Assembly: GCA_903877885.1 (NCBI GenBank)
Contig: CAIRFN010000005.1
Coordinates: 17,956 to 81,955, forward strand
Direction: 5' to 3'
DNA from: an uncultured Candidatus Berkelbacteria bacterium
GTDB lineage: Bacteria > Patescibacteriota > UBA1384 > UBA12157
Length of the DNA stretch: 64,000 bases
In this document: positions 24,500-62,558 of the stretch, piece by piece
Position numbering within the stretch: the first letter of the stretch is position 1
How the letters are laid out: the number at the start of each line of letters is the position of its first letter
Position numbers and translations under genes: made by a program
The notes under the pieces: model-generated
The model's input: only the letters and a program-made list of their open reading frames with translations
The model's database searches: none
What the model was told of the DNA's origin: nothing

Positions 24500-24514
24500 T
24501 AATTGAAAGTTACT

Positions 24515-37839: not shown

Positions 37840-38793
37840 ATGACCATACAACAAATTTTTGAACTCGGAATTAAATTAGGCGTTAAAAACGATCCTCGAG
37901 GAAAAGTCGGCGTCAAACGCTGGCTTGATTTGCAAAAAAAGAAATTCGATAAAATCTCGAAAGAAGAAAAAGAATTTTTTGATTTAGAACGTTTAACCAA
38001 CCCTTATGCTGATAGTCGAATTTTATTTGACAATAAAAAACCAATCAAACGAATGGCGGCCGGGATTGATATTAATGTTGGCGAAATTGCCTTGTTAAAC
38101 ACACTTGAACCAAAAGTTGATTTAGTTATGGCTCATCATCCGGAAGGTAAAGCTCTGGCCGCGCTTGATGAAGTGATGCACTTACAAGCCGATCTGATGG
38201 CCAGTTACGGTGTCCCGATCAATGTAGCCGAAGGCGTGATGCGCGAACGAATTGAAAAAGTTTCTCGTCAAATTTCACCAAGTAATCATAAGCAAGCAGT
38301 TGATGCCGCGAAACTGGTTGATTTGCCAATGTTTTGTTTGCATACTCCTTGCGACAATTTAGTTTTCCAATTTTTGCAAAATTTAATGGATACGAAAAAA
38401 CCGGAAACTGTGGCTGAAATTGTGGAAATCCTCCAAAAAGTACCGGAATATCGCCTGGCGACTTTAGATAAAGCCGGTCCGCGAATTTTCGCTGGCAGTC
38501 CAGAAAATCGCTGTGGTAAAATCGTGGCCTTTGATATTACCGGCGGCACATCAGGTTCAAAAGAAGTTTATCCAGAATTAGTTCGAGCCAGCATTGGCAC
38601 GGTTATCGGTATGCATATGAATGAAGAAAACCGCGAAGAAGCGCTCAAAAATCATTTGAATATTGTCATCGCCGGCCATATTTCCTCCGACTCACTTGGT
38701 ATGAATTTATATTTAGATGAACTCGAAAAAGAAGGAATCGAGATAATTCCGATTAGTGGGTTGATCCGCGTAAAAAGAAGTAAGAAAAGTTAA
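37840..38793 (+). CDS. Nif3-family dinuclear metal centre protein (YqfO/YbgI-like)
   Basis: 317 aa. AHHPEG, HTPCDN and IVIAGHISSDSLGMN motifs. Possible TTGATA, 17-bp spacer, TATACT promoter at 37806-37834. Confidence 0.7.
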   Translation: MTIQQIFELGIKLGVKNDPRGKVGVKRWLDLQKKKFDKISKEEKEFFDLERLTNPYADSRILFDNKKPIKRMAAGIDINVGEIALLNTLEPKVDLVMAHHPEGKALAALDEVMHLQADLMASYGVPINVAEGVMRERIEKVSRQISPSNHKQAVDAAKLVDLPMFCLHTPCDNLVFQFLQNLMDTKKPETVAEIVEILQKVPEYRLATLDKAGPRIFAGSPENRCGKIVAFDITGGTSGSKEVYPELVRASIGTVIGMHMNEENREEALKNHLNIVIAGHISSDSLGMNLYLDELEKEGIEIIPISGLIRVKRSKKS

Positions 38794-38921: not shown

Positions 38922-40070
38922 TTATTTATTAACTTCTTTCTTCAGTTCTTCCACTTTATCCGTTCTCTCCCAAGGTAAATCTAATTCTGGTCTACCGAAA
39001 TGGCCATAGGCGGCAATTTTTTGGTAGATTGGTTTTCGAAGATCTAAGGCTTGGATAATCATCCCTGGTCGTAAATCAAAAACTTTACTCACCGCTTGAG
39101 CGATTTTATCGTCTTCAATGGTGCCAGTACCAAACGTATCAATTCGCACCGACATTGGTTCAGCTCGACCGATGGCATAAGCAATCTGCACTTCACAGCG
39201 TTCGGCTAATTTTGCGGCAACGATATTCTTGGCCACCCATCTGGCCGCATAGCTACCCGACCGATCAACTTTACTCGGATCTTTTCCAGAGAAACAACCG
39301 CCACCGTGACGCGCATAGCCACCATAAGTATCAACAATAATTTTGCGGCCGGTCAGTCCAGTATCACCTTGCGGCCCACCAATCACAAACCGACCGGTGG
39401 TGTTGACATAGTAGTTTGTATTTTGAAGCAAGGATTTAGGGATAACTTTTTCAATTACTTTCTCGATAATTTCTTTTTTTAAGATCGATGTTTTAATATT
39501 TTCATCATGTTGTGCCGCAATTAAAACCGATTCGATGCGGACTGGTTTGTCGCCATCATATTCAACTGTAACCTGGCTTTTGCCGTCTGGTCGCAAGCCT
39601 TTGACAATCCCCTTTTTTCGAACTTCAGCCAAGCGTTGGCAAAGTTTGTGAGCCAAAACAATTGGCAAAGGCATTAATTCTTTGGTTTCGCGACAAGCAT
39701 AACCAAACATCAAACCTTGATCACCGGCGCCTAGATTTTCCAAGTCTTCGACCAAAGGACAGTCCTTTTGTTCCTTTAAGGACTGTCCTTTACTAAACGC
39801 ATCAACACCCTGTGCAATATCGGCTGATTGTTCCTTAACCGCCACCATTACACCGGAAGTTTCCCAGTGAAAACCATATTCGGCATTTGTATAGCCAATT
39901 TGTTTAATGACGTTGCGAGCGATTTTCGGAATATCGACATATGTTTTAGTGGTAATTTCTCCAGCGATAATACAAACGCCGTTGGTCAGCAATGTTTCGC
40001 AAGCGACTCGTCCTTGCGGATCGTCAGTTAAAATTGCATCGAGTACCGCATCACTAATCTGATCAGCCAT
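38922..40070 (-). CDS. metK: S-adenosylmethionine synthetase
   Basis: [35 protein letters not shown] and the rest of the canonical MetK sequence. Carries an in-frame REP-like insertion at 39765-39800 (..[17 protein letters not shown]..). Confidence 0.95.
39765..39800. repeat. REP-like palindromic element inserted in frame inside metK
   Basis: aaggacagtcctt-ttgttccttt-aaggactgtcctt. It adds about 12-16 residues relative to the conserved MetK loop before GAGDQG. Confidence 0.8.
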
Positions 40071-40292: not shown

Positions 40293-40412
40293 TCACCGCA
40301 AGCGGTGAAATATATAAAAACATCTTTCCCGCAAGGGGTCGGAGGTAGCACCTAAATTAATGGGTTGCTGGTGGATCATCGGGCCGAATCCCTCACCACA
40401 CTCTTGATATTA
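40293..40412 (-). ncRNA. SAM-I (S-box) riboswitch with an intrinsic terminator, upstream of metK
   Basis: Minus-strand read: AUCAAGAGUGUGGUGAGGGAUUCGGCCCGAUGAUCCACCAGCAACC...GGUGCUACCUCCGAC. This matches the conserved SAM-I core AGAGnGGnGGAGGGAnnGGCCCGAUGAnnCCnnGCAACC...GGUGCUA. It is followed by a terminator tcaccgcttgcggtga plus a T-run at 40280-40308. Confidence 0.8.
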
Positions 40413-40528
40413 AAATTAATTTTTAACTAAATTTATCATATTATAACCATCTAACTTTTGTCAAACTCTTGCCTGGAAACAATTTTTGCTTTAAGATGTA
40501 AATATTAAATTTATATTTTAGGAGCAAA

Positions 40529-45136: not shown

Positions 45137-45527
45137 TGTCATCCTCGAGCCGGTTTGAGCTTTGTCGAAAACCGACATCAAGGATCCATCAAAATAAAAA
45201 GCTATTTCGTTTACATTTTAGCCAGTCAGAAAAACGGAACATTATATATCGGTGTTACAAATGATATTATAAGAAGGATTTGGGAGCACAAAAATAAAGC
45301 TATTCAAGGTTTTACAGATAAATATAGAATTGATAAATTAGTTTATTTCGAAGAAACACCAGATATTAATTCAGCTATTAAGAGAGAAAAACAATTAAAA
45401 TTATGGAGCCGTTCCTGGAAAATAGATTTGATAGAAAAGAATAATCCTGATTGGAAAGATTTATATCAAGATTTGTTATAATGGATCCTTGATGTTGGAG
45501 CGCTTCGCTTCCAACTCGAGGATGACA
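45137..45527 (+). mobile_element. Second full-length family-A element carrying a GIY-YIG ORF between its terminal modules, inserted between atpA and atpG
   Basis: Left module tgtcatcctcgagccggtttgagctttgtcgaaaaccgacatcaaggatcca. ORF to 45481. Right module tggatccttgatgttggagcgcttcgcttccaactcgaggatgaca. Confidence 0.75.
45155..45481 (+). CDS. GIY-YIG nuclease family protein (second copy)
   Basis: ..YFVYILASQKNGTLYIGVTNDIIRRIWEHKN..REKQLKLWSRSWK.. The frame is open from a TTG inside the left terminal module. There is no ATG near the conserved N-terminus, so the start is uncertain. Confidence 0.75.
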   Translation: MSFVENRHQGSIKIKSYFVYILASQKNGTLYIGVTNDIIRRIWEHKNKAIQGFTDKYRIDKLVYFEETPDINSAIKREKQLKLWSRSWKIDLIEKNNPDWKDLYQDLL

Positions 45528-45712: not shown

Positions 45713-45958
45713 CTACTTTCGGAAAAACATAGCTATCAGACCAACAATTATGCTACCGATATAAGCGATTGGATGTTGTGCAAAACCGAGAGTCAACATC
45801 CATGAAATCGCTCCACTTGCACCGACGGCGGTAGATAGACCAGAATCTGGACCCATAACAGCCAGAAAGAAAAGGAAGCTTAATATCAGAGTTGCGATCA
45901 TCAGTGATGCGTACATTAACGTAGCAACACCAAAGAATCTTCCTATTCGGTAAGTCAT
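45713..45958 (-). CDS. Small hydrophobic membrane protein (81 aa), antisense to and inside the atp operon
   Basis: Intact ORF with 2-3 TM helices. RBS ggagggaacgaaATG on the minus strand. Weak terminator-like hairpin plus a T-run downstream of its stop. Confidence 0.4.
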   Translation of the reverse strand: MTYRIGRFFGVATLMYASLMIATLILSFLFFLAVMGPDSGLSTAVGASGAISWMLTLGFAQHPIAYIGSIIVGLIAMFFRK

Positions 45959-48501: not shown

Positions 48502-48711
48502 ATGCTAAACTTCATAAACAGCTATTGGATTTTAATAATTCCAGTAATTACCTTAATTATTGGTTTGCTATTTCTATCTATTGGCACCAAGAATAACAAT
48601 AAAAATTTAATTATATTTTCAAAAATTATTAGTATTTTTAGTTTTGTTATAATCTGTTATTTAGTATTTGTGACTTTTATGATTTACTTAAGTATGAAAC
48701 CTTTGAATTAA
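48502..48711 (+). CDS. Small hydrophobic protein (69 aa) between atpD and atpC
   Basis: Two predicted TM helices and very AT-rich. Possibly a real small membrane protein or a spurious ORF. Confidence 0.3.
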   Translation: MLNFINSYWILIIPVITLIIGLLFLSIGTKNNNKNLIIFSKIISIFSFVIICYLVFVTFMIYLSMKPLN

Positions 48712-49170: not shown

Positions 49171-49210
49171 ATCAAAAATAATTATATAAAATCAAATTTT
49201 TCTCACAAAA

Positions 49211-49238
49211 AAATCACCAAAAAAATGGTGATTTTTTT
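49211..49238 (+). terminator. Rho-independent terminator ending the atp operon
   Basis: aaatcacc-aaaaaaa-tggtgattt followed by ttttttt. Confidence 0.7.
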
Positions 49239-49897: not shown

Positions 49898-50335
49898 TTA
49901 AAGAATTGGCAAAATATTCTTTTCAAATTGATAGATGAGCCATTCGGCAATAAATTCTGTAAAACCAAGTGGAATCATCATTGAGCCAAATAGAAAGAAC
50001 ACTACTAAGATTCTGGATGCTTGGTTAACAGATTGGTTAATTGATTCTGTTCCAATAAAAATCAAAATCTCTAAGAGAGCGCAGATCAGCAATAGATTGG
50101 CGCACACCGACATTACGATAATCGATTCTAAATATTTACTCTCAAACAATACTATTCCAAACTTTAATTTTGGCAAAATAAAAGCAAATACTAAAAGTAA
50201 AATCGACAGGCAAAAACTTGCCATTAGTAGAATCCAAAACCAATGCCAACATTGCACTACATCAATCATCTTGCTATCCCCACTTTCGATTGTAAGGTTC
50301 TGATTCAATATTCTCATACTAAAGTTGAATGTCAA
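49898..50335 (-). CDS. Membrane protein, hypothetical (145 aa, about 4 TM)
   Basis: Intact ORF with hydrophobic helices. Confidence 0.4.
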   Translation of the reverse strand: MTFNFSMRILNQNLTIESGDSKMIDVVQCWHWFWILLMASFCLSILLLVFAFILPKLKFGIVLFESKYLESIIVMSVCANLLLICALLEILIFIGTESINQSVNQASRILVVFFLFGSMMIPLGFTEFIAEWLIYQFEKNILPIL

Positions 50336-50401
50336 TAATAATTTATTTTATTGGCAGACAATTTGAGTTGTGATACAATGAAAACAGTATTTGGTATTTC
50401 A

Positions 50402-50516
50402 GCCCATCCTTCATCTTTACTGTGCAACCGACTCCGTCGTGTACGCACAGTGCAGATTGCGGAGGGCGACATCCTATCATATTTTTTAAATAAATGAGTG
50501 TCGGAGGGGTATAGTG
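50402..50516 (+). promoter_or_regulatory. Conserved ~115-nt 5' leader element, copy A, upstream of the T4SS-like operon
   Basis: About 80% identical to the reverse complement of 62448-62558. Both end in gtgtcggagggg, which is the SD, plus a start codon. It contains the cggagggcgaca / tgtcggagggg complementarity. Confidence 0.5.
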
Positions 50517-50552
50517 CAGTTTCAAGTACCACAAAATATGGTCAAGCTATAA
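50514..50552 (+). other. 12-codon decoy ORF (VQFQVPQNMVKL*) that duplicates the RBS and the first 8 codons of the gene at 50647
   Basis: ggaggggtataGTGcagtttcaagtaccacaaaat at 50503 matches ggaggggtataGTGcaatttcaagtaccgcaaaat at 50636. Confidence 0.45.
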
Positions 50553-50646
50553 CTATCATATTTTAAGGTAGCTTGCCGCGGAATTTTGCGGATAGCTAAA
50601 CGAAAATTTTTCCAAAAATATAGATTACTAATCACGGAGGGGTATA

Positions 50647-51150
50647 GTGCAATTTCAAGTACCGCAAAATATAGATCTCGAAGACAAGATTGTCGGGCCA
50701 TTGACCTTGACGCAGTTTTTGTATGTCTTAGGCGGCGGCCTTGTTGATTACATTATGTTTCAATCTTTTGCCGCTAATTATTTTGGGCTTTTTCTGGTTC
50801 TTGGTATCCCAGTCGCTTTACTTGCTTTAGGATTAGCTTTTTTTAAAGTCCAAGAACAGCCTTTGTCACATTTTATCACAGTTGGAATTTTATATTTATT
50901 TAAACCAAAAACTAGACTATGGAAAAGAGAAGAAAGCTATCCAACAGTTCTAACTGAACCAACAAAAAAAGAAAAAAAGGAAAATGAAAATGTGGCAATT
51001 CCAAAACATCATCTTGAAAAAAGTGAGCTGGAACAATTAGCCTACAAATTAGATACTTTTCAAGTAGATACGCCGGTTGAAGAAAAGAAAAAATTTGGCG
51101 CAGTTTCCGCCGCTTTCGAACAATTATTGAAGGAAGATAAAAAGAAGTAA
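50647..51150 (+). CDS. Small 2-TM protein, VirB3-like / PrgI-like component of Gram-positive-type T4SS (tentative)
   Basis: 167 aa. GTG start after GGAGGGG. Hydrophobic hairpin LYVLGGGLVDYIMF...LVLGIPVALLALGLAFF followed by a charged tail. First gene of the operon that contains VirB4. Confidence 0.45.
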   Translation: MQFQVPQNIDLEDKIVGPLTLTQFLYVLGGGLVDYIMFQSFAANYFGLFLVLGIPVALLALGLAFFKVQEQPLSHFITVGILYLFKPKTRLWKREESYPTVLTEPTKKEKKENENVAIPKHHLEKSELEQLAYKLDTFQVDTPVEEKKKFGAVSAAFEQLLKEDKKK

Positions 51151-51163
51151 CCAGGAGGGGATC

Positions 51164-51865
51164 TTGGCTCAACAAAAACCGCCACAACCAAAACCGATTG
51201 TCAGCACCCAAAGTTTTTTGGCTTTTTCTGAAGTCCACGAGGGAATTATAATTACTAAAAATGGTGAACTCCGAGCGATTTTAATGGCCAGCTCGATTAA
51301 CTTTTCCTTAAAATCCGAACAGGAACAAACGGCTATTGTTTATGCTTATCAAAATTTTCTTAACTCCCTATCTTTTCCTGTTCAAATTATGATGCAATCG
51401 CGCAAACTTGATCTAACAAAATATATTGCCAAACTTAAAGAGATTGCCAAAGTTCAGGGCAACGAATTATTGCGCGGCCAAACCATTGATTATATTTATT
51501 ACATCGAACGATTAGTTAAAGTCGCCAATATTATGGATAAAAAGTTTTATGTTGTTATTCCTTTTATGCCGCCTTCCACGACCCAAATTAAACCTTCTGC
51601 TGGTTTATTTGGTAATAAAAAAGAAGCTAGCGGCCCTAAAATTACACCGAAGGATTTTGAAAAATATCAAACCGAAATTTTACAGAGACTTCAAGTAATT
51701 CAATCTGGTTTAGGTTCAATTGGAGTCCGTACAGCGCAACTTAATACCCAACAAATTGTCGAGTTGATGTACGGTATTTATAACCCAGAAGAAGCGGAAA
51801 AAGAAAAATTAATCAATTTTAATCATCTAAATTCTGATTTAGTCGAAAGCGAAGTCGAAAAATGA
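51164..51865 (+). CDS. VirB4/TraC-family N-terminal domain encoded as a separate ORF
   Basis: ..FSEVHEGIIITKNGELRAILMASSINFSLKSEQEQTAIVYAYQNFLNSLSFPVQIMMQSRKLDL.. matches the N-terminal domain of conjugative VirB4-type ATPases. Its stop overlaps the next ATG (ATGA). Confidence 0.6.
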   Translation: MAQQKPPQPKPIVSTQSFLAFSEVHEGIIITKNGELRAILMASSINFSLKSEQEQTAIVYAYQNFLNSLSFPVQIMMQSRKLDLTKYIAKLKEIAKVQGNELLRGQTIDYIYYIERLVKVANIMDKKFYVVIPFMPPSTTQIKPSAGLFGNKKEASGPKITPKDFEKYQTEILQRLQVIQSGLGSIGVRTAQLNTQQIVELMYGIYNPEEAEKEKLINFNHLNSDLVESEVEK

Positions 51866-53685
51866 ATAATCAAAATCAACCACAATCAATACCAACGCCA
51901 ACACAAAATAAATTACCTGCCGGTGTTTCTCAAGGTATGAACTCGGTTTTTGATCTAATTGCCCCGCCGTCATTTGAGGCTAAACCAAATTATCTAAAAA
52001 TCGGTGGCATTTTTACTCGAACTCTGTTTGTATTCACTTATCCTCGCTTTGTCCAAACCAACTGGTTAAGTCCGATTATCAACTACGATATTACAATGGA
52101 TATTTCCATGTTTATTCACCCAATCGGATCTAAAGAAACCATGGATACTCTCAAGAAAAAAGCAGCTCAACTCGAATCGAGCGAACAAATTGATGCGGAA
52201 AAGGGCATGGTTCGCGATCCGGAACGCCAAACTGCTATTTCCGATATTGAAAATTTACGCGATACTTTGCAGCGCGGCGAAATGAAATTATTCCAATACG
52301 CGCTTTATTTTACCATTTACGCTCAAAGCGAGGATGAATTAAACACTATTACCGAGCAATTAGAGTCAACCTTGGGTGGCATGTTGATTTATACCAAACA
52401 AGCGCTATTGCAAATGGAACAAGGTTTTAATTCCACTATTCCGCTTTTTCTTGATCAGCTAAATATTCTTCGCAATCTGGACACTGCTTCGCTTTCCACC
52501 ACTTTTCCATTTACTTCTTCAACATTAAGTTCGAATGATGGTATTCTCTACGGCATTAATCGCCATAACAATTCTTTGATTTTGTTTGACCGATTCAAAT
52601 TAGAAAATGCTAATTCTGTTGTTTTTGCTAAATCCGGTTCCGGTAAATCGTATACAATTAAACTGGAAGCTCTTCGATCATTGATGCTCGGTACCGATAT
52701 TATTGTGATCGACCCGGAAAATGAATATAAAGCCTTGTGCGAAGCGGTTGGTGGTAATTACTTGAATATTTCCATCAACTCCGATAAACGAATTAACCCG
52801 TTTGATTTGCCGGTGGCTGGTGTGGGTTTACAAAACGATGCCACTGGTGAAGATATTTTAAGAAGTAATATTACAACTTTACAGGGTTTGATTTCTTTAA
52901 TGCTTGGCGAAATGACTCAAGATGAAGACGCGATTTTGGAAAAGGCTTTATATGCCACTTACGCCTTGCGCGATATCACCGCCGACCCTAATACTCAAAG
53001 AAATAAGCCACCGGTTCTAGCCGATCTTCAATCAATTTTGGCTGACACAACCGGCGCTGATAGTATGGTCAAACGTTTAGAGCGATACACTAATGGTACA
53101 TTTCGAGGTTTATTTGATCAACCAACCAACTTTGATTTAGGCGGCGGCATGACTGTTTTTAGTGTCAGAGATTTGGAAGACGCGCTTCGGCCGATTGGCA
53201 TGTATATGGCTCTGAACTATATTTGGCAAAGAGTTCGTTTTAATGTCAAAAAACGAATTATGATTATTGATGAAGCCTGGTGGATGATGCAATACGAAGA
53301 TTCTGGTAAATTTCTTTATGCTTTAGCTAAACGCGGTCGTAAATATTTCCTTGGTTTAACCATTATTTCTCAAGATGTAGAAGATTTCATTGGTAGTAAA
53401 TATGGCCGTGCCGTGGTCAACAACTCTTCAATGCAAATTTTAATGAAGCAAAACCCGGCATCAGTCGATAAAATTGCTTCGATTTTCGGTTTAACTGAAG
53501 GTGAAAAGTTTATGTTACTTGAATGCGAAGTTGGTGAAGGTTTATTCTTTGCCGGACTCAATCATGTGGCTATCAAAGTCGTTGCCAGTTATTCTGAAGA
53601 CCAATTAATCACCACTAACCCGCAAGAAATTCTCGAACAACAAGCAAAAGCTAAAGAAGAAAAAGCTGCGGCCGAAACAAATTAA
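51862..53685 (+). CDS. VirB4-family conjugal transfer / type IV secretion ATPase (ATPase domain)
   Basis: Walker A VVFAKSGSGKSYT, Walker B MIIDEAWWMM and a TrbE/CagE-like C-terminal region. Confidence 0.8.
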   Translation: MNNQNQPQSIPTPTQNKLPAGVSQGMNSVFDLIAPPSFEAKPNYLKIGGIFTRTLFVFTYPRFVQTNWLSPIINYDITMDISMFIHPIGSKETMDTLKKKAAQLESSEQIDAEKGMVRDPERQTAISDIENLRDTLQRGEMKLFQYALYFTIYAQSEDELNTITEQLESTLGGMLIYTKQALLQMEQGFNSTIPLFLDQLNILRNLDTASLSTTFPFTSSTLSSNDGILYGINRHNNSLILFDRFKLENANSVVFAKSGSGKSYTIKLEALRSLMLGTDIIVIDPENEYKALCEAVGGNYLNISINSDKRINPFDLPVAGVGLQNDATGEDILRSNITTLQGLISLMLGEMTQDEDAILEKALYATYALRDITADPNTQRNKPPVLADLQSILADTTGADSMVKRLERYTNGTFRGLFDQPTNFDLGGGMTVFSVRDLEDALRPIGMYMALNYIWQRVRFNVKKRIMIIDEAWWMMQYEDSGKFLYALAKRGRKYFLGLTIISQDVEDFIGSKYGRAVVNNSSMQILMKQNPASVDKIASIFGLTEGEKFMLLECEVGEGLFFAGLNHVAIKVVASYSEDQLITTNPQEILEQQAKAKEEKAAAETN

Positions 53686-53687
53686 TT

Positions 53688-54941
53688 TTGTTTATTATGA
53701 TCAACCAAACGGTAAATAAACTAAAAGCCCTTAAGAATCGTAAAGGCGCGATTGGGATTATTATTGCTATTTGTATAGTAATTTTTCTTTTGATTCTCTT
53801 AATCGCTTTTGCCGCCGCTATAATTGGTAGTCACCAGGGCGCAAATTCTACCGGCGGATTAATCACTGGTACTGATACCGGAGGTTGCACTGGTGGGAAA
53901 TTACCACAAAGCGTTTTAGATCTTATTAATCAAAACAAACCGGTTTATCAGGCCGCAGCCAAAGCCGAAGGAATTGATTGGGAAATGTTGGCTGCGGTTC
54001 ATTATCGCGAAGCGACCAATAACCCCAACGGATCGTTGATGAGTGGTGAAAAAATTGGAACAGTAAATCCGGATAATGGTAAAACTTACAATACTTTATA
54101 CGATAGCGCAGTCGCCGCCGCTCAATCTTTAAAATCCCGTGTTAATGGTCTAAGAGTTGGTTCAGATAGTGACACAATTAAAAAGGCTTTTTTGGGACAT
54201 AATCGAGGTGACAGATATACAAAAGGTGGATGTAGTCTTGATTCTTCACCATATGTTATGAATCAATTTGATGCTGCCCATACAAATATGGCTTATCCAT
54301 CAAATCTAATTTGCGAACCAAAAAGTACTGCCGGAAGAACCGAAACAAAACTTGGCGCTTTCACTGTTTACTCAATCTTAAAAGGCAATATTGCTGGTAG
54401 TGCTACTTGCACCCAAACGAGCGGACCAGCCGCCACAGGTAGTTGCGCTGATATTTTGCCAGCCGCGGAAAAATATTTCGGACTAAATTATTCACAAGCT
54501 AGTCACTGTGGCCCAAATACAATCGGACCAGCTGGTGTAACTGCTGTTGATTGTTCTGGTTATGTTTCCAGGGTTTATCGTGATATTGGTATCGCATCAA
54601 AAAACTGGTGTACAAGAACCGCAACTATACCTAACGATTCCACTTTAGTCTTAATTACAAACGATCTTTCTAGGGCACCACAATTAGCTCAACAGGGCGA
54701 TTTAATCTTAACCGGAAGTCACGTCGTTATCTATGTTAACAATAATACTGTTTATGCTTCTCGCGGCGAAACAGCCGGTGGCCCACAAAAGGAGACTGTT
54801 AGAAGTGGTGTTTGGAATGTCAAAAACCTCGCAGCCACTCATGGTTGGGTCGGACTTTATCGGGCCAAGGCCTGCACACTCCAACAACCAGCCGCCTTAA
54901 TTCAATCGGCTGTAAATAATGCCTTAAAGGTGAAAAAATGA
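53688..54941 (+). CDS. Membrane-anchored cell-wall hydrolase with a C-terminal NlpC/P60 (Cys-His) peptidase domain, possibly a VirB1-functional analogue
   Basis: N-terminal TM. C-terminal DCSGYVSRVY (catalytic Cys) ... GDLILTGSHVVIYV (His). Confidence 0.6.
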   Translation: MFIMINQTVNKLKALKNRKGAIGIIIAICIVIFLLILLIAFAAAIIGSHQGANSTGGLITGTDTGGCTGGKLPQSVLDLINQNKPVYQAAAKAEGIDWEMLAAVHYREATNNPNGSLMSGEKIGTVNPDNGKTYNTLYDSAVAAAQSLKSRVNGLRVGSDSDTIKKAFLGHNRGDRYTKGGCSLDSSPYVMNQFDAAHTNMAYPSNLICEPKSTAGRTETKLGAFTVYSILKGNIAGSATCTQTSGPAATGSCADILPAAEKYFGLNYSQASHCGPNTIGPAGVTAVDCSGYVSRVYRDIGIASKNWCTRTATIPNDSTLVLITNDLSRAPQLAQQGDLILTGSHVVIYVNNNTVYASRGETAGGPQKETVRSGVWNVKNLAATHGWVGLYRAKACTLQQPAALIQSAVNNALKVKK

Positions 54942-55954
54942 ACAAGAAATTTATTTATTTAATTATTGGCATAGTAATTATCCTTTTCGGTCTGATTGTT
55001 TTAATCGCGATTACTGTAGCTAAACCAGTAGAAAGTTTAGTTAATCCAGATAAAGATGCCATTAGCTTATCTACCTTATCCTCCGACTCTCAATATCTTT
55101 TTTACTATGATCAAAAATCAAGTATTAAAAGATGGAATTTGCAAACAAACCAAGTTGAAGATTGGCTACAATTTCCTTTTTCCAAAATTGATAATATTAG
55201 TTATTCACCAGATAAAAGTTTGGCAATTGTTTATTGGAGTAACCCTAATGATGTCACCGATATTCATACTTGGTTAGTTGATTTAACTAATAAAAAAATT
55301 ATTAAAGAGATTAGTCAAAATATTTCCAATAGTGCTTGGTCACCTGATGGCGAACAATTAGTAACCCAATATTGGAATGAAAAACAAAACAAATTTGAAA
55401 TCGATCTATACCAAACTGATGGCACGAATCTTAAAAAAATCTCCGATGATGACGCCGGCGATATAAATCTGTTATGGCCAAATTCCAAAACTGTAATTTA
55501 TTTTCCAATGGCTTCCGAAGCCAGTCAAAACGATGTAAATGCAATTAATTTACAAACTTTAAAACAAACAACTATCTTACAAAATAAAGCTGTGATTAAT
55601 GCAAAAAATTTGATTGATCAAAACACCTTTATAGTCGATTTAATGTCTGATAATTTAATAACCGAAGAAGTGGCAAGTTACAATTTGTTAAATAATAAAT
55701 TATCAATCATTAAATCTGGAACAAACTTAAACAAAATTACTCCAATTTCAACCACGAATAATTTTTATGTTGCCATCAGACCAGATAAACAAACTACAGA
55801 TGATATTATTAAAATCAATTCCGATACCAATAAAACCGAAAATGTTCGAACCAAATTACCAGGTAAAATTGATGCCACAAATTTAGCTGTTTCGGCTGAC
55901 AATAAATATTTGTATTTTATATCAGATAAAAATTTCTATCGGTTAAAATTGTAA
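54938..55954 (+). CDS. Membrane-anchored beta-propeller protein (TolB/PD40-like repeats)
   Basis: N-terminal TM, then repeated SPDK/SPDG-containing blades (YSPDKSLAIVYWS, WSPDGEQLVT). Confidence 0.45.
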   Translation: MNKKFIYLIIGIVIILFGLIVLIAITVAKPVESLVNPDKDAISLSTLSSDSQYLFYYDQKSSIKRWNLQTNQVEDWLQFPFSKIDNISYSPDKSLAIVYWSNPNDVTDIHTWLVDLTNKKIIKEISQNISNSAWSPDGEQLVTQYWNEKQNKFEIDLYQTDGTNLKKISDDDAGDINLLWPNSKTVIYFPMASEASQNDVNAINLQTLKQTTILQNKAVINAKNLIDQNTFIVDLMSDNLITEEVASYNLLNNKLSIIKSGTNLNKITPISTTNNFYVAIRPDKQTTDDIIKINSDTNKTENVRTKLPGKIDATNLAVSADNKYLYFISDKNFYRLKL

Positions 55955-55966
55955 ATAGGAGACTAA

Positions 55967-56671
55967 ATGAAAAAAGGCTTATCAAAAATTATTATAATTA
56001 TCTTAATAACAATATTTGTATTGATTATTGTTGGTCTTTATTTTTATCTAGCTAAAAAACCTCAACCAAAACCAGTTTCTTCGCCAACTCAACTAACACA
56101 ATTAAATCAGTTGCCAATTGAAACCAATGATTTTAAAATTACTTATGATCCCGATCAAAATACTCTAACAATTACTCCAAATATTTTATTTGATTCAACT
56201 CAAACTCCCAGCGACTTTTTCAAAAAAAATTGGGATCAGTATAATACTGACGCGCATGTTGCCTTGAAATATCTTGAAGATCATCAACTTGGTAAAACTT
56301 TCCGGACTAACTTTGGGATTAAAATCGTGTGGTGGCAACAGGCCTGGTGGCCAGCCGGTAAGGGTAGCGATCTGCTCGACGGAGCGATTATTGCACCAGC
56401 GAGCGATTTATATCAAACCTTAGTCAATGAAACGAGCGATTACTCAATTAAACTGGCTAACCAACCTAATTATGATTTGGAAGTTGATTTATACGCGACT
56501 TTAAATGGTTCGGATAATCCTGAAGCTGACCAAATAAAATTACAAAATTATCTTGATGAACTAAAAGCTTTCAAAAAAGAGGTTTTTGATTATATTAAAT
56601 CAAAAAACCTTGATCTAACCAAAATCAGAATTTATTGGATTCCGAGCGATGCCAAGGATATTCAGATTTAA
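55967..56671 (+). CDS. Membrane-anchored hypothetical protein (234 aa)
   Basis: N-terminal TM IIIIILITIFVLIIVGLYFYL. Last gene of the co-directional operon. Confidence 0.4.
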   Translation: MKKGLSKIIIIILITIFVLIIVGLYFYLAKKPQPKPVSSPTQLTQLNQLPIETNDFKITYDPDQNTLTITPNILFDSTQTPSDFFKKNWDQYNTDAHVALKYLEDHQLGKTFRTNFGIKIVWWQQAWWPAGKGSDLLDGAIIAPASDLYQTLVNETSDYSIKLANQPNYDLEVDLYATLNGSDNPEADQIKLQNYLDELKAFKKEVFDYIKSKNLDLTKIRIYWIPSDAKDIQI

Positions 56672-56720
56672 AAAAGAGGCCTTGTAAGCCTCTTGGGGAT
56701 TGAAATTTATTTTTTATATT

Positions 56721-57584
56721 TTATTCGTCGGGGTTAAAATCAAATGAATAAGTTTTTTTTGTTATATTGTAAGTCAAACTAAAAAGTGGAACTGCAACCT
56801 TATATTTTTTGTATATAGTCAAGTCATTTAAAACAAAAGGGACTCCGATTTCATTTTTAATCCGCAATGGACTACTATGAATTGACCATTTAGATAGAGC
56901 GTAATATTTTAAATAATCTGAAAAATATTTCTTTGCAATTAATCTAGTAGCTGGGTCTATCTGTTGAATCAGATTGTTTATTTCAGTTTGATTTTTAGCT
57001 GCCATTAATTGATAACCAAAATTAATTATTCCAGGCACAAGATCTTGGTTTAAGGTTGCTAATACATCAGGTGTTAAAACAACCTTTTTTTGATTCTCGG
57101 CGAATTCACTCATTGGTAAATGGATCAATTTATAGGAAATCACATTCGGCCCATCCCAATGAGCATTTTCCACTGTATCCATTTTTAAACTCGCTACCTG
57201 GCAATATTTTTTTTCATAACCGACTAGCCAATAAATTATTTTTGTCAAAGGATCATATACGCCTAAATAGTCATGAAAATCACGCTGACTAACCTTCCCA
57301 TCATCCGGAATTTTATCAGCCACAATCATTAGCCAACCATCATCTGACCAGTCAAAACTAACAGTTTGAACCGCTGGCTCACAATTTTGCCTATCAAGCC
57401 AGGTAATTTGTTGCCAAATTTTACCTTTGTCGTAACTTATTTCCAATTTTTGACCATAATAAAGTTCATTCTGAACCAGCCGAGCCATTACCTGCGGCAT
57501 TTTTGGTGATGATACTGCTTTATCTTGCGCTACTATCGCAGTTGATAAAAACAGAAACACTAATACAATTGTCAAAGTACGCAT
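56721..57584 (-). CDS. Secreted hypothetical protein
   Basis: Signal peptide MRTLTIVLVFLFLSTAIVAQDKA. The start is trimmed to the ATG at 57584. The track extends to 57614. Confidence 0.45.
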   Translation of the reverse strand: MRTLTIVLVFLFLSTAIVAQDKAVSSPKMPQVMARLVQNELYYGQKLEISYDKGKIWQQITWLDRQNCEPAVQTVSFDWSDDGWLMIVADKIPDDGKVSQRDFHDYLGVYDPLTKIIYWLVGYEKKYCQVASLKMDTVENAHWDGPNVISYKLIHLPMSEFAENQKKVVLTPDVLATLNQDLVPGIINFGYQLMAAKNQTEINNLIQQIDPATRLIAKKYFSDYLKYYALSKWSIHSSPLRIKNEIGVPFVLNDLTIYKKYKVAVPLFSLTYNITKKTYSFDFNPDE

Positions 57585-57696
57585 CGAATTTCCTCCTAAG
57601 GATAAGTTGGTCATATTCTACATCATTAGACAATATTATTCAAGACATGATATGATAAAATTGAAAAATTATATTGATCTATTTTAGGAGGGGAAC

Positions 57697-60600
57697 ATGG
57701 CCGACGATAATATTAAATTTACCACTAAAACCAACCAAACCTTTGATGTTGAGGTTGAAAAAACCAAAAGTTCGACCGAAAAAACTGAATTAGGTACTAC
57801 TACTTCGACTGCTGGATCAGAAAATAATAGTGGAAAAGCTTCACCAAGTCAAACTGGATCGACTGAACAATCCTCTAAACCCGGTTCTACCCAATCCCAA
57901 CCACAAAATAATAATCAACCAGAAAATCAGCAAAATCAACAAGATCAGCAAAACCAAAAAAACAAAGAAGAAAAAGAAAAAGCTGATCAAAAAGATAAGG
58001 ATAAAGAAAAAGAAAAAGCCGAAAAAGAAGGCCAAGAACCAAAAGAAAAACCAGCCGAAGGTGAGAAACCTGGCGAACCAGGTCAACCAGCCGAAGGTAC
58101 TCCGGGCGAAGGTATCGGCAATGAACCAGCTGGTGTACCTGAAGGCGGATTACCAGAAGGAGCTGGCCCAGTTGGAACAGAAGCGGGGACAACCGGTTTA
58201 GGTGGTGAAGCGGCAGTCGGTGGCGAAGGCGCAGCCGCGGCTGGTGCTGAAGGAGCAGCCGTAGCCGAAGGTGCCGCTGTCGCCGAGGGAGCAGCAGTTA
58301 CTGAAGGCGTGGCTGTAGCCGAGGGAGCCGCGGTGGCTGCTGGCGCTACTGCCGGTGCGCCGGTTTTATTAATCGTTTTAGGAGTTTTAGTAGTTATTGT
58401 ATTGATTCTTTTGGTAATTTTTGGCGTCATGGCTTGCCAAGCCGATCAAGGCGAATTTGGCAAAGGAACCAAACAAGAAGCCGGACCAAATTATACCAAT
58501 ACCAAAACAGTCTTAGCTAGCGCCGGAACACCAGCTAAAAGCGCTCAAGGCAACACTGTTAGCGGTCAAAATAAAATTAATCTTAATGCCACTGATCAAA
58601 AATATATTGCTGCCGGTAGCACCGACAAACGGTTGATGGATGCCTTGCACTATGTTGACCAAAAACATCTAAGTCTTGGTGTTAGTCACGTTATTTCTGG
58701 CTATAACGGCTCGGCGAAAGTTAGTTACAATTCTAATACCTTGGCTTCCGAAATTGATGCCAAATATAGTCTATTTCATCCGGTAGGCATTAGCTATGCC
58801 GCGCTAGATTATTCAAACATTCCTGATTTAACCGAATCTGGCGCCTTGGACAATTCTCAAGTGACAGCCAATGTTTCGGCCCACCAAGAAGGTTTGGCAA
58901 TTGATATTTCTACGATTGATTTTGTCTATCACGACCACGAATATGATCCGCTCTGCCCAGATGGTTTTCCACCGTTTGACAAGGTTTGGTATAGCGACGG
59001 TAGTTCGGATTCTAGTGGTATTTTGGGTAGCTTAATTAATCCCGAGGGTTTAAAAGCTAATTTAGATAGTTTGACTTCGCAAATCACGAATTTAACTGCA
59101 TCTTTAAACGATTCAACTATTACCAAAATTTTAAATCAAGCTAATCCCGATCAAGCCAGCAATCTATTGAAAATCGTTCAAAATGCCAGTAAAAATAGTA
59201 ATGGCGATTTGGCTAGTATTAATAATATTTTCCAACAAAACAACGACTCTGTTAATGCTCTGCAAGCCCAAGTTGCTAAATACGCTGGCGCCATTAACGC
59301 CAGTTCTCAAGACCAAGCGACAAAAGATAAAGAAACTAACGCTCTAATTAAAATTCAAGCAATGGTTGAGTCTAATACTAGCCAATGGAGCCAAATCGGC
59401 AATGTGACTGGCATCCATACTGGTAGCATCCAACGAGATATTGATGATCTTAGTGATTTAGCTAATGGTCAATTCGACCCAAATCGCACTAATGATTTGA
59501 TTAACCACTTAACGAGCGATTTTAACAGTATTACCAATTTTAAGGGCATCAGTGGCTTAGGCCAAGCCAGCCAGTTGACTCAAAGTTTTGGTGATATTAC
59601 CAAATATCTAACCAACGGTAATAGTTCCGATGTTAATGCTATGGCCGATACTTTTAATAAATTTATTTCTGATCCTGGTATCAGTTCTGGTGGTCTTGGT
59701 TCAAGTTCTAAAAATTTCAACACAGTATTAAATGATTTGAGTAAAAATCCGAGTTTAAAAAGTTTAGCTAATTTGGATATTGCAAAGTTGGGAAACCTTG
59801 GTGATTTTGGTAAATTAACTAATCTGGCCAATTTGGATAATTTATCCAATCTCACTAAAATCGGCGGTTTAGGTAGTTTAAGTAGTTTGCCTGGTTTAAG
59901 CAATTTAAGTAATATTCCAGGTGTTAGTGGATTAATTAGTGGTCTAAGTGGGCTTTTGGGCGGCAATGAATTATTACGCATTCCCTGCTCCAGCTACAGC
60001 CCAGTACCAGATTCGAGTAACCAGTTGCCATCGATTCCCGGGTTAAGTCAAGCTCTTGGAACAGTTACTAATAGTTTAAACCAATTGAATAATGTGATGA
60101 ATACTTCAGTTATAGACGCCTTAAATAAAATTGATCCAACATTAACAAAACAACTTCAAAACTCGATTTCTCAAATAACTGGCATTGCCCCAGGTCAACA
60201 AGCGACCGATATCAATGCTATCACCAGCCAAAAACTGGCTTCTAACCTCTCGACTGTTAAAGATTTATTTAATAAAAATTCCGATACGGTTAATTTATTA
60301 CAAAAACAAGTCAGCCAAATTGCGTCGGCAATTAATCATTCCTCTCAAGATCAGAATACTAAAAATCAAGAAACTCAGGCTTTAGTTAAACTTCAAGCCA
60401 TGGTTGAAACTAATTCTAACCAATGGAATCAATTTATGTCTGATTCTGTTAACCAAAGAGGAATGATCGATCAAGACCTTAGTTTCATCAATTATGTCAC
60501 CGGCCAAAACTCGAATAAAGTCGATGCCAATACGGTTAAAGGTGTACTTGATCGAGCAATCAACGATATTCAAGCGACAAATTTTAATCAAAACAATAGT

Positions 60601-61437
60601 CAGGTTGCTCAAGCCAGAGATTTAAATACTGCCTTTAACGATATTACTAATCAGTTAAAAACAATTTTACCAACAAACGGTTCGACTAGTTTTAGCGCAA
60701 GCCAAGCCAATCAAATTGCTGATACATTTCAGAATTTCTTAAAATCAGATTCTAATCCAGCCACCGGCACTAAAAACTTCTCTAGCATCATGAATACTTT
60801 AAGTAAAAATCCTGATTTGAAAGCTTTAGCCAACTTGGATGTCAGTAAACTTGGTGATCTGGGAGATTTTGGCAATCTTAGTAAATTGGCAAATGTTGGC
60901 AATTTAAGCAGTCTCACAAATATTGGCGGCTTAGGCAGCCTTGGTAGTTTAACTGGTTTTTCTAAAATTGCTTCTAGCCTGGGTAATATTCCCGGATTAG
61001 GCAGTCTCTTTGGCGGTCTGACCGGCGGTACCAATACGACCTGGAACGGTTTGCCAGCCGTCGCTATTCCGATTCAAGTGGGTTGGCAAGATCGAAAACC
61101 ATCAGTCGGCTGGATCACTGGCGATTCCAGTAATTTGATTACCAATGCTATTACTAATGCTTTGGTTAATTATTTCGTTTATCAACCGGAAGCGCGTCGC
61201 AAAACCCATCAACTGGTTGGTGAATTATTACAATTTCCATATGATATGGTAGCAGCAAGTGGTAAATCTAGCGATAAATATAATTATCGCTTAAGCCAGA
61301 TTATTACTTACTCTGATGAACGCGATGTCAAACCATTTTGGGATAAATTAACCGATCTCTATGGTTTACCTCGCACATCAAATCTTGGTCTTTTTGCCAT
61401 GCCAGAAGCTTGGGATCATGTTCACATCGGATACTAA
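57697..61437 (+). CDS. Giant surface protein (1246 aa) with three regions: an acidic/low-complexity N-terminus with a Gly/Ala/Val/Glu repeat, a single TM, and two ~350-aa tandem repeat units
   Basis: RBS taggaggggaacATG. TM helix PVLLIVLGVLVVIVLILLVIFGVMA. Repeat units around aa 490-800 and 820-1110, e.g. ..NTVLNDLSKNPSLKSLANLDIAKLGNLGDFGKL.. vs ..SIMNTLSKNPDLKALANLDVSKLGDLGDFGNL.. Confidence 0.6.
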   Translation: MADDNIKFTTKTNQTFDVEVEKTKSSTEKTELGTTTSTAGSENNSGKASPSQTGSTEQSSKPGSTQSQPQNNNQPENQQNQQDQQNQKNKEEKEKADQKDKDKEKEKAEKEGQEPKEKPAEGEKPGEPGQPAEGTPGEGIGNEPAGVPEGGLPEGAGPVGTEAGTTGLGGEAAVGGEGAAAAGAEGAAVAEGAAVAEGAAVTEGVAVAEGAAVAAGATAGAPVLLIVLGVLVVIVLILLVIFGVMACQADQGEFGKGTKQEAGPNYTNTKTVLASAGTPAKSAQGNTVSGQNKINLNATDQKYIAAGSTDKRLMDALHYVDQKHLSLGVSHVISGYNGSAKVSYNSNTLASEIDAKYSLFHPVGISYAALDYSNIPDLTESGALDNSQVTANVSAHQEGLAIDISTIDFVYHDHEYDPLCPDGFPPFDKVWYSDGSSDSSGILGSLINPEGLKANLDSLTSQITNLTASLNDSTITKILNQANPDQASNLLKIVQNASKNSNGDLASINNIFQQNNDSVNALQAQVAKYAGAINASSQDQATKDKETNALIKIQAMVESNTSQWSQIGNVTGIHTGSIQRDIDDLSDLANGQFDPNRTNDLINHLTSDFNSITNFKGISGLGQASQLTQSFGDITKYLTNGNSSDVNAMADTFNKFISDPGISSGGLGSSSKNFNTVLNDLSKNPSLKSLANLDIAKLGNLGDFGKLTNLANLDNLSNLTKIGGLGSLSSLPGLSNLSNIPGVSGLISGLSGLLGGNELLRIPCSSYSPVPDSSNQLPSIPGLSQALGTVTNSLNQLNNVMNTSVIDALNKIDPTLTKQLQNSISQITGIAPGQQATDINAITSQKLASNLSTVKDLFNKNSDTVNLLQKQVSQIASAINHSSQDQNTKNQETQALVKLQAMVETNSNQWNQFMSDSVNQRGMIDQDLSFINYVTGQNSNKVDANTVKGVLDRAINDIQATNFNQNNSQVAQARDLNTAFNDITNQLKTILPTNGSTSFSASQANQIADTFQNFLKSDSNPATGTKNFSSIMNTLSKNPDLKALANLDVSKLGDLGDFGNLSKLANVGNLSSLTNIGGLGSLGSLTGFSKIASSLGNIPGLGSLFGGLTGGTNTTWNGLPAVAIPIQVGWQDRKPSVGWITGDSSNLITNAITNALVNYFVYQPEARRKTHQLVGELLQFPYDMVAASGKSSDKYNYRLSQIITYSDERDVKPFWDKLTDLYGLPRTSNLGLFAMPEAWDHVHIGY

Positions 61438-61877: not shown

Positions 61878-62447
61878 TTAAAATATCTGCGGCAAATGCA
61901 TAAAGCTGGCAAAGATGTTCGGCAAAAACGAAACGAAATATAAAAATAACGAAATAAAAACACCGTAGAGCAAAACCCGAATTGACCAATTAAGGTAAAA
62001 CTTGCGCGGCACATTGGAATATTTGGTTAAATTATAGGTCTCTAAAATATAGGCATCATAAATTTTGTTCTCATTAGCCAAGGTATCCAAAACCTGTTTT
62101 TGATATTCGTCTTCGGATTTACCGCTGATTTGATGATGGTAAAACAGACTTTCACTCTGACCTTTTTTGGTCGCAAAATGACTTGGTTTCAAAGCCATTA
62201 AAGCAAAAAACATAGAAATAACTACAGATATTAAAGCAGCAATAAAAAATACGCTTTGAGCCCATTGGGCTTCAAAATTTGTGGCAAAAAAGACAATCAA
62301 AGCCGAGTTAAAACCAATCATAATATTGGTTCTTAAGTCCAACATATTGCGAATTTCAATCTGTTTATTTAAAATATCAGACACAAAAGTCACCCGCTCC
62401 AGAGCGCCCAATTCCCCATCCCATTTAATTTCTTCTTTAGTTTGCAT
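61878..62447 (-). CDS. Membrane protein (3 TM) with a cytoplasmic N-terminal domain. Function unknown
   Basis: Start trimmed to the ATG at 62447 after GGAGGGG. The track uses the GTG at 62462. Preceded by conserved leader copy B. Confidence 0.5.
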   Translation of the reverse strand: MQTKEEIKWDGELGALERVTFVSDILNKQIEIRNMLDLRTNIMIGFNSALIVFFATNFEAQWAQSVFFIAALISVVISMFFALMALKPSHFATKKGQSESLFYHHQISGKSEDEYQKQVLDTLANENKIYDAYILETYNLTKYSNVPRKFYLNWSIRVLLYGVFISLFLYFVSFLPNIFASFMHLPQIF

Positions 62448-62558
62448 CTTCCCCTCCGACACACATTAATTTAAAAATATGATAGTTTGTCGCCCTCCGA
62501 TACTCGCACTGTTCGTACACTACGAAGTAGGTTGAACAGTAAGAGTTTAGGATGGGCA
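62448..62558 (-). promoter_or_regulatory. Conserved ~115-nt 5' leader element, copy B
   Basis: The reverse complement aligns with 50402-50516 over gcccatcct...ttactgtNcaaccNactNcgtNgtgtacgNacagtgc...cggagggcgaca..ctatcatattttt..gtgtcggagggg. Confidence 0.5.

Follow-up and report, generated by a model that had tools for sequence, protein, structure and literature searches.

A probable core operon of a Patescibacteria-type type IV secretion system, with VirB4 encoded by two genes, in a Candidatus Berkelbacteria genome

Introduction

The closest described relatives of the locus considered here are the type IV secretion systems (T4SSs) of Patescibacteria, which were surveyed by Quinonero-Coronel et al. 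in 2025 (PMC12102498) and for which the locus SEML1_0004-0019 of Southlakia epibionticum ML1 was reported by Wang et al. in 2023 (PMC10633639). Here, we analyze a six-gene operon, together with the genes that appear to belong with it, in a 64,000-nucleotide stretch of an uncultured Candidatus Berkelbacteria genome (GenBank assembly GCA_903877885.1, contig CAIRFN010000005.1, positions 17,956 to 81,955 of the forward strand). We refer to this whole stretch as the window, and positions are counted from its first letter. A sequence-only reading had proposed a Gram-positive-style, conjugation-like system with VirB4 divided between two open reading frames (ORFs).

Patescibacteria VirB4 proteins form a monophyletic clade inside MPF-FATA, with vertical evolution within classes, and relaxases occur in only 103 of 3,035 Patescibacteria genomes (PMC12102498). 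The most abundant T4SS component in these bacteria is TrsD, a remote homologue of the VirB4 N-terminus that was first found in plasmid pGO1; 2,272 homologues were counted, 1,664 of them beside virB4 (PMC12102498). The S. epibionticum genes include, in descending order, SEML1_0013 (TrbL/VirB6-like), SEML1_0012 (NTF2-like), SEML1_0011 (a ‘T4SS protein’), SEML1_0010 (PrgI), SEML1_0009 (a hypothetical protein of 293 amino acids, aa, at the TrsD position) and SEML1_0008 (VirB4, 612 aa), then SEML1_0007 (1113 aa, with a Hedgehog/DD-peptidase domain), SEML1_0006 (two lysozyme-like domains and a cysteine proteinase), SEML1_0005 (an essential exported protein with a PEGA domain) and SEML1_0004 (PMC10633639). 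By transposon sequencing, all genes from SEML1_0004 to SEML1_0013 except SEML1_0012 are essential for epibiotic growth in co-culture (PMC10633639). The published view of the homologous Patescibacteria system is that it has an episymbiotic role, with effector export or another form of host interaction favored over classical conjugation (PMC12102498; PMC10633639), and a 2026 preprint links T4SS-like tubes to the taking up of host material. The system is near-universal in a huge, mostly uncultured radiation and essential in the one species tested, and its importance is already recognised. A split VirB4 and a missing relaxase are its known signature, described in 2023 and 2025.

Results

The 607-aa ATPase belongs to NF045971, the NCBIfam CD1110 family of VirB4-like ATPases: it scores 348.9 bits (E 5.8e-104), above the curated threshold of 325, and spans positions 186-733 of the 752 in that model. 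The TraC and TIGR00929 VirB4 models score it under their cutoffs, as expected for a protein without the first ~200 residues, and its DUF87 and AAA_10 matches are those of a generic P-loop protein. Residues 219-584 match 4AG5, the crystal structure of the Thermoanaerobacter VirB4 C-terminal domain (E 3.5e-46), residues 250-550 align with TrwK 445-733, and the Walker A (AKSGSGKS, residues 256-263) and Walker B (IMIIDE, residues 466-471) motifs are both intact. HerA, on the other hand, is matched only at E 0.019 (13.5 bits), and the profile searches place the ATPase with VirB4 and not with FtsK/HerA. There are also weak matches to CedB (E 2.7e-13) and CedD (E 2.7e-5), and the best VirB4 match from outside the candidate phyla radiation (CPR) is 38% identical across 94% of the length.

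The 233-aa protein matches only N-terminal parts of VirB4 models: VirB4_plasma 103-233 (E 7.2e-9), CD1110 11-80 and TIGR00929 18-194. It scores below the cutoff of the NCBIfam TrsD/TraD model (E 1.9e-6, 27.8 bits against 200), and an identical protein carries a precomputed annotation as Pfam PF26593 (TraC-like). Judging by these profiles, it is a TrsD/TraD homologue that falls outside the narrow pGO1/pSK41 NCBIfam subfamily, and it would correspond to roughly the first quarter of VirB4, that is, to the N-terminal part of the VirB4 N-terminal domain. When an AlphaFold2 model based on 17 homologues was compared by Foldseek with 350,542 PDB chains, the top 14 matches were all R388 TrwK/VirB4 chains, with probabilities of 0.75-1.00 (at least 0.94 for the first 11). 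Sequence-profile searches of the PDB with the TrsD-like family, and with the LAS module described below, gave nothing meaningful; fold comparison alone worked. The TrsD-like and 607-aa proteins tile TIGR00929 without overlap (18-194 and 249-724), and the break in VirB4 falls at about canonical position 200-250. The sequence-only reading had put it at the domain boundary. Because the ATPase domain of the 607-aa protein begins only near residue 219, the break lies instead inside the N-terminal domain, and the 607-aa protein is predicted to be the second half of that domain followed by the RecA-like ATPase domain.

For comparison with relatives, 80 species-level loci (numbered with the prefix L below) were fetched from GTDB genomes, and 49 independent ones among them also contain virB4. 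A PrgI gene lies directly upstream of the TrsD-like gene in 80/80 loci. In every one of the 49, the TrsD-like protein and VirB4 are encoded by separate ORFs, no ORF is matched by both queries, the two genes are between -197 and +464 nt apart, and each of the three possible frame relations is seen. The 233-aa protein has 696 homologues, and the best 120 of these are stand-alone Patescibacteria proteins of 204-266 aa annotated as PF26593; 17 diverse homologues share 66 invariant columns, and the close homologues are all from Patescibacteria metagenome-assembled genomes. Constant separation with variable gaps and frames excludes that the split stems from a sequencing artefact, from recent pseudogene formation or from a programmed frameshift that is conserved. 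Programmed frameshifting that joins the two products had been a candidate and was rejected given the variation in gap and frame, nine loci having both genes in the same frame with intervening stops. The operon sequence is also identical in three independent metagenome assemblies, so the junction at 51862 is not a one-off sequencing error.

The split, first taken to be unusual, is ordinary: the pair is also found on plasmids of Bacillota and in the pGO1 prototype (TrsD/TrsE). A tblastn search of PLSDB gave 147 plasmid records with the small TrsD-like protein, from Bacillus, Clostridium and Paenibacillus among others. Five records are common to this list and the one for VirB4, and in them the small protein precedes the VirB4 match by ~100-400 bp on the same strand. 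On the Pontibacillus sp. plasmid CP062975, genes for pilin-like, 145-aa, 779-aa and 116-aa proteins are followed by one for a 274-aa protein that overlaps a 621-aa ‘VirB4-like ATPase, CD1110 family’ and then by one for a 1050-aa peptidoglycan DD-metalloendopeptidase. As far as homology and gene order go, the window locus shows a two-gene TrsD/VirB4 layout that is apparently ancestral to an entire branch of the monoderm T4SSs, and not a defect.

Among the relatives, L054, L058-L060, L062-L065, L067 and other Gracilibacteria, Peregrinibacteria and Peribacteria loci have adjacent PrgI and TrsD-like genes with no VirB4 ORF after them, in agreement with the published Gracilibacteria exception. This absence could in part be an ORF-calling artefact of using code 11 on code-25 genomes.

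The other products of the operon fit a T4SS of monoderm type. The first, of 167 aa, matches Pfam PrgI (PF12666, E 4.8e-9, 37.1 bits against a gathering cutoff of 27) and has two adjacent predicted hydrophobic segments, as anticipated when it was called VirB3-like. The hydrolase, the propeller and the 234-aa protein each have one predicted N-terminal hydrophobic anchor. In the 417-aa hydrolase, the NlpC/P60 domain suspected earlier is supported by Pfam (E 1.2e-6), with C289 in DCSG and with H345, and the order is membrane anchor, SLT-like lytic transglycosylase region (YRE106A) and NlpC/P60 cysteine peptidase. A profile of nine homologues matches the MltF catalytic region (E 1.3e-3), the NlpC/P60 structures 8er5, MepS and Spr (E 0.012-0.02) and, weakly, a Tn916-like conjugative hydrolase (E 0.15). 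The hydrolases of relatives have the canonical ES...GLGQF at the aligned columns where the window protein has YREA, with the Glu conserved. The protein is thus probably a VirB1-like monoderm hydrolase with two predicted lytic domains behind an anchor, encoded directly downstream of virB4.

Across the sampled loci, the gene after virB4 encodes a hydrolase of modular build. Its second domain is of NlpC/P60 type in some lineages and VanY/LAS-like in L045, L016 and L086. L045 and L016 retain the SLT-like N-terminal domain, and the protein encoded at this place in L006 has a third kind of C-terminal domain.

The membrane-anchored beta-propeller seen in the earlier reading is borne out by TolB propeller (E 1.1e-7) and PD40 (E 3.3e-5) matches of the 338-aa protein; sequence searches against the PDB gave nothing beyond weak WD/beta-propeller matches. 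After two profile iterations, 33 of the 41 loci with enough sequence were seen to have a PD40-like gene on the virB4 strand, no more than 6 kb downstream of virB4, and 42 of 46 PD40-like proteins encoded near virB4 have an N-terminal anchor. There is no mention of a propeller in a T4SS cluster in the main texts or supplementary text of PMC12102498 and PMC10633639. The last product of the operon (234 aa) had been listed as an unknown protein, yet its fold is recognisable through L013 and L045, where the homologues that occupy this position match Pfam PEGA (E 1.5e-8 and 6.9e-14). The window protein itself has only a weak Cohesin match, at residues 37-110. A PEGA-like beta-sandwich is predicted to follow the anchor, with the C-terminal half left unassigned. 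A role for this protein as a VirB8/NTF2-like subunit was considered and found unsupported, the homologues carrying the PEGA beta-sandwich instead.

Past the operon is encoded a 1246-aa protein, first taken for a repeat-rich surface protein. It has a recognisable LAS fold (MepA/VanY/M15, ‘Hedgehog/DD-peptidase’), with zinc ligands H-x6-D and a C-terminal His, and the repeats are an insertion in it. An acidic, Ala/Gly-rich N-terminus, predicted to be cytoplasmic, precedes a transmembrane segment at 223-241. The catalytic domain comes in two halves, residues ~242-420 with SAHQEGLAID and residues ~1104-1246 ending MPEAWDHVHIGY, and its catalytic motifs are intact. Between the halves is an insertion of ~680 aa with a tandem duplication (456-752 against 806-1110, 41% identity). 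We interpret the protein as a membrane-anchored peptidoglycan peptidase with a LAS domain that the tandem-repeat insertion interrupts. This variable insertion is a possible host-specificity element.

The system probably extends beyond the operon: a gene for a VirB6/TrbL-like polytopic protein lies 21 kb upstream. Its 857-aa product begins with a signal-like N-terminus; the first 300 aa hold ~6-7 transmembrane segments, and the long tail is hydrophilic and rich in Q, P and G. Homologues are present in 17 of the 28 loci with at least 6 kb of upstream sequence, and in at least 21 other loci they are encoded directly upstream of PrgI-TrsD-VirB4 on the same strand. A profile built from 17 homologues has as its top PDB match the R388 VirB6 protein, TrwI (E 0.016), in an alignment that covers the conserved ‘LsPlAf...LPqT..F..W’ region. 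Four homologues have Pfam TrbL/VirB6 matches (E 3.9e-4 to 0.19), all under the gathering score; the window protein alone has no Pfam match. The strong synteny, together with these marginal profile matches, suggests that the 857-aa protein is likely the VirB6-like channel subunit of the same system. Homologues of the 812-aa protein encoded before it precede the VirB6-like gene beside virB4 in L078 and L044, and homologues of the 159-aa TPR protein precede it in eight loci (weak, E 2e-5 to 4e-3). Searches with these two proteins gave no family or PDB assignment. A 273-aa ORF (30225-31046) was tried as the counterpart of a gene for ~270-300 aa that occupies this place elsewhere, without support: a profile of the latter has no match in the window.

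Between 25037 and 38793 there are ten consecutive ORFs (166-857 aa) without a Pfam match at E<=0.001. The first two belong to the T4SS-linked block, and the others include one of 537 aa on the minus strand, followed by ORFs of 166, 356, 187 and 241 aa. The GC content is 0.43-0.49 at 30-38 kb, compared with about 0.40 elsewhere. The ORF at 37840-38793 has no family match here, although its conservation among other Patescibacteria loci is very strong (E as low as 1e-147).

The operon is flanked by an F-type ATP synthase operon upstream and dciA downstream; its GC content resembles that of the flanks, and there is no compositional break. The closed genome of Berkelbacteria GW2011_GWE1_39_12 (CP011213) has the order ATP synthase, PrgI, TrsD-like, VirB4, hydrolase-related, PD40, large peptidase and dciA. 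The same order is found in the closest species representative, Ca. Berkelbacteria ELA735 (L006), with a TrsD-like protein that is 74% identical. In a Pfam scan of the window ORFs of at least 120 aa and a few shorter ones, no relaxase, VirD4/TcpA-type coupling protein or integrase was matched, which agrees with the absence of a relaxase and VirD4 from the window in the sequence-only reading. The small membrane ORFs at 45713-45958 (-), 48502-48711 and 49898-50335 (-) have no pilin family match. Table 1 lists the features of the system.

Table 1. Coordinates of the T4SS-related genes and of candidate signals in the window.
Feature	Position	Strand	Remarks
TPR protein gene, N-terminal anchor	24503-24982	+	159 aa
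Secreted protein gene, hydrophobic C-terminus	25037-27475	+	812 aa
VirB6/TrbL-like polytopic protein gene	27490-30063	+	857 aa; 21 kb upstream of the operon
Candidate sigma-70-like promoter, best upstream match	50351-50379	+	TTGGCA-17-TACAAT, extended -10 TG; consensus match
PrgI/VirB3-like gene	50647-51150	+	167 aa
TrsD-like gene	51164-51865	+	233 aa
VirB4 ATPase gene	51862-53685	+	607 aa
VirB1-like wall hydrolase gene	53688-54941	+	417 aa; gene callers’ ATG at 53697 gives 414 aa
PD40/TolB-like propeller gene	54938-55954	+	338 aa
PEGA-like anchored protein gene	55967-56671	+	234 aa
G+C-rich hairpin between convergent genes	56674-56694	.	Pattern match
Convergent gene between the six-gene operon and the LAS peptidase gene	56721-57614	-	297 aa
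LAS-fold peptidase gene	57697-61437	+	1246 aa

All six co-directional ORFs are present as first described, as is the ATGA overlap of the TrsD-like stop and the VirB4 start at 51862-51865. A second ATGA overlap joins the hydrolase and propeller genes. The candidate promoter may drive the operon, given its resemblance to the consensus, and the hairpin after the last gene is likely a bidirectional terminator that ends the six-gene operon. Another terminator-like hairpin, at 49207-49238, ends the upstream ATP synthase operon. Rfam and tRNA scans gave no match within or beside the operon. The 297-aa convergent gene is shared only with the closest relative and a 145-aa divergent membrane gene only with the same strain, and neither is counted as part of the system.

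A 38-nt direct repeat (95% identical, 50502-50539 and 50635-50672) copies the PrgI ribosome-binding site, GTG start and first eight codons 133 nt upstream and creates a 12-codon mini-ORF. It occurs in the three same-strain assemblies and is absent from all relatives, and thus is probably a neutral remnant; a regulatory function was considered and rejected for the same reason.

Several neighboring features are recorded for completeness. The ATP synthase operon is interrupted between atpA and atpG by a GIY-YIG nuclease gene (45155-45481, +) and an antisense 81-aa membrane ORF (45713-45958, -), and a 69-aa ORF with two transmembrane segments (48502-48711, +) sits between atpD and atpC. The closed Berkelbacteria genome likewise has a minus-strand gene for ~85 aa between atpA and atpG. 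The 194-aa product of a gene just past dciA (61878-62462, -) is a membrane protein that matches the Pycsar effector domain PycTM (E 1.2e-9), and L006, the closest relative, conserves it at the corresponding position (E 5e-97). The gene at 17534-17911 (-) encodes a member of the 23S rRNA intervening-sequence protein family (PF05635, E 1.3e-35); in L004 and L086, members of this family also occur close to the T4SS locus. An S-adenosylmethionine (SAM) riboswitch (RF00162, 57.6 bits) at 40317-40413 (-) is located upstream of an S-adenosylmethionine synthetase gene at 38922-40070 (-).

Discussion

We conclude, with a probability of about 0.88, that the region is the core operon of a chromosomal, vertically inherited Patescibacteria-type T4SS, derived from monoderm MPF-FATA machines, in a Berkelbacteria-like CPR host. 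The sequence-only reading had suggested a possible apparatus for DNA uptake, effector delivery or episymbiosis rather than classical conjugation, with the split VirB4 as its peculiarity. What stands is a monoderm, MPF-FATA-like T4SS with episymbiosis as its most likely context; the special status of the split does not. Since the window has no relaxase or coupling protein and a cultured Saccharibacterium needs the homologous locus for epibiotic growth, exchange with a host cell is the most likely function, either effector export or acquisition of host material, and not plasmid conjugation.

Some observations weigh against this conclusion. The evidence of essentiality comes from S. epibionticum alone and not from the Berkelbacteria lineage, and the relaxase and coupling-protein negative is confined to the 64-kb window. 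No VirB2-like pilin and no VirB8-like protein were found in the window, although both are reported in other Patescibacteria. The VirB6-like call combines marginal E-values (0.016, and 4e-4 on relatives) with synteny, and the SLT-like call is weak for the 417-aa window protein, whose match to the MltF catalytic region covers 32 residues at E 0.0049. The AlphaFold2 model of the TrsD-like protein has moderate quality (pLDDT 66.5), with TM about 0.4.

By analogy with R388 and Gram-positive T4SSs, PrgI/VirB3 and the TrsD-like protein would jointly provide the membrane docking and the assembly contacts for which a one-piece VirB4 uses its N-terminus, and would bring a hexameric VirB4 ATPase to the membrane beside the VirB6-like channel. 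The ATGA overlap may couple translation of the TrsD-like and VirB4 halves. The polytopic VirB6-like protein, encoded at a distance, would form the membrane channel. The two anchored peptidoglycan hydrolases, one with SLT-like and NlpC/P60 domains and the other a LAS metallopeptidase, could open the wall of the cell itself, of its host, or of both, and the anchored PD40 propeller and PEGA-like protein may be parts of an envelope scaffold or of a contact structure. The gene identities, the conserved split, the chromosomal synteny and the TrsD-like and LAS folds are observed here, and the subunit roles, the substrate and the direction of transport are inferred.

Could the operon instead be the transfer module of an integrative and conjugative element (ICE) or a plasmid remnant, serving classical Gram-positive conjugation with a relaxase and a coupling protein encoded outside the window? 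Its best family match is a conjugative-transposon VirB4, its closest non-CPR relatives are on Bacillota and Actinomycetota plasmids and share the succession of PrgI-like protein, TrsD-like protein, VirB4 and large peptidoglycan peptidase, and homologues of the type IV coupling protein (T4CP) are reported elsewhere in most Patescibacteria genomes. However, the position between ATP synthase and dciA is constant across species, the closed genome included, and the window shows neither an integrase, relaxase or T4CP nor a compositional break. The vertical descent of the Patescibacteria VirB4 clade within classes and the rarity of relaxases point the same way, and in S. epibionticum the T4CP homologue is not essential, whereas the T4SS genes are. 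We therefore regard conjugation as very improbable. A DNA-import machine, either like the archaeal Ced system or working with ComEC, also seems improbable. The ATPase does resemble CedB and CedD, CPR bacteria are without nucleotide synthesis, and T4SS loci of the class ABY1 adjoin competence genes, but the Ced match reaches 49 bits compared with 349 for conjugative VirB4, no Ced-like or competence genes were found in the window, and deletion of comEC in S. epibionticum ended competence and not viability, with the T4SS still essential.

To the idea that the two VirB4 ORFs are an artefact or pseudogene, produced when a sequencing error or decay shifted the frame of a once-continuous virB4, we give next to no credence. 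In its favor, a single-base indel could likewise yield an ATGA overlap of 4 nt that leaves the downstream ORF in the -1 frame. Against this stand the three identical assemblies, the stand-alone homologues (204-266 aa in the best 120) with their invariant columns, the separation in all 49 species-level loci across variable gaps and all three frames, the start of its own and intact Walker motifs of the 607-aa ORF, and the annotation of the same two-gene layout in cultured Bacillota. A further variant concerns direction: the apparatus might be a host-tapping conduit instead of an exporter, through which the epibiont would take macromolecules, for instance RNA, nucleotides or lipids, from its host, powered by VirB4 without a coupling protein. 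This we think unlikely. If it were true, the repeat-bearing LAS peptidase and the anchored, lineage-conserved PD40 propeller would be CPR-specific parts that breach and grip the host wall and set host range.

The preferred reading, a vertically inherited Patescibacteria-type T4SS, leaves the locus as a clean example of a Berkelbacteria type in which the system is probably spread over two loci. What it adds to the published picture is the remote VirB6-like gene, a propeller that is a recurrent partner of virB4, and the insertion-bearing LAS peptidase.

How does the locus compare with known systems? Compared with one-piece VirB4 proteins, such as TrwK of R388 and Agrobacterium VirB4, the two window proteins together tile the full model, the ATPase domain and Walker motifs are conserved, and the TrsD-like fold matches TrwK, but here the polypeptide is divided inside the N-terminal domain, and there is no outer-membrane core of VirB7, VirB9 and VirB10. 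The MPF-FATA systems of pGO1 and pSK41 (TrsC, TrsD, TrsE, TrsG) resemble the locus in that the gene for a VirB4 of ~600-670 aa comes directly after one for a small VirB4 N-terminal homologue, often overlapping it. These and other Bacillota plasmid systems also have a VirB3-like gene before TrsD and a large cell-wall hydrolase after VirB4. Systems of the pGO1/pSK41 type are described in the literature as borne on plasmids or ICEs and as transferring DNA with a relaxase and a T4CP; CP062975, the Bacillota example described above, is typed as non-mobilizable. The window protein differs from pGO1/pSK41 TrsD in scoring far below the cutoff of the TrsD/TraD model.

In the comparison with S. epibionticum, the differences concern setting and accessories. 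The VirB6-like block is adjacent in that locus and 21 kb away here. The S. epibionticum genes lie near dnaN and recF (dnaA/dnaN also in L086), whereas the window locus follows the ATP synthase operon. A VirB2-like pilin array and an NTF2-like (VirB8-like) gene are known there and were not detected in the window; conversely, the window has an anchored PD40 propeller that the S. epibionticum locus lacks, and only in the window is the DD-peptidase domain interrupted by a tandem-repeat insertion. In other respects, the homologies suggest that the operon maps almost gene for gene onto the S. epibionticum locus. Both are chromosomal, have no relaxase or coupling protein adjacent, and share the PrgI, TrsD-like and VirB4 triad with the small protein encoded by its own gene. 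Both also encode a very large protein that is VirB6/TrbL-like (probably so in the window), a large protein of DD-peptidase fold, a hydrolase that combines a glycosidase with a cysteine peptidase, and an exported PEGA protein.

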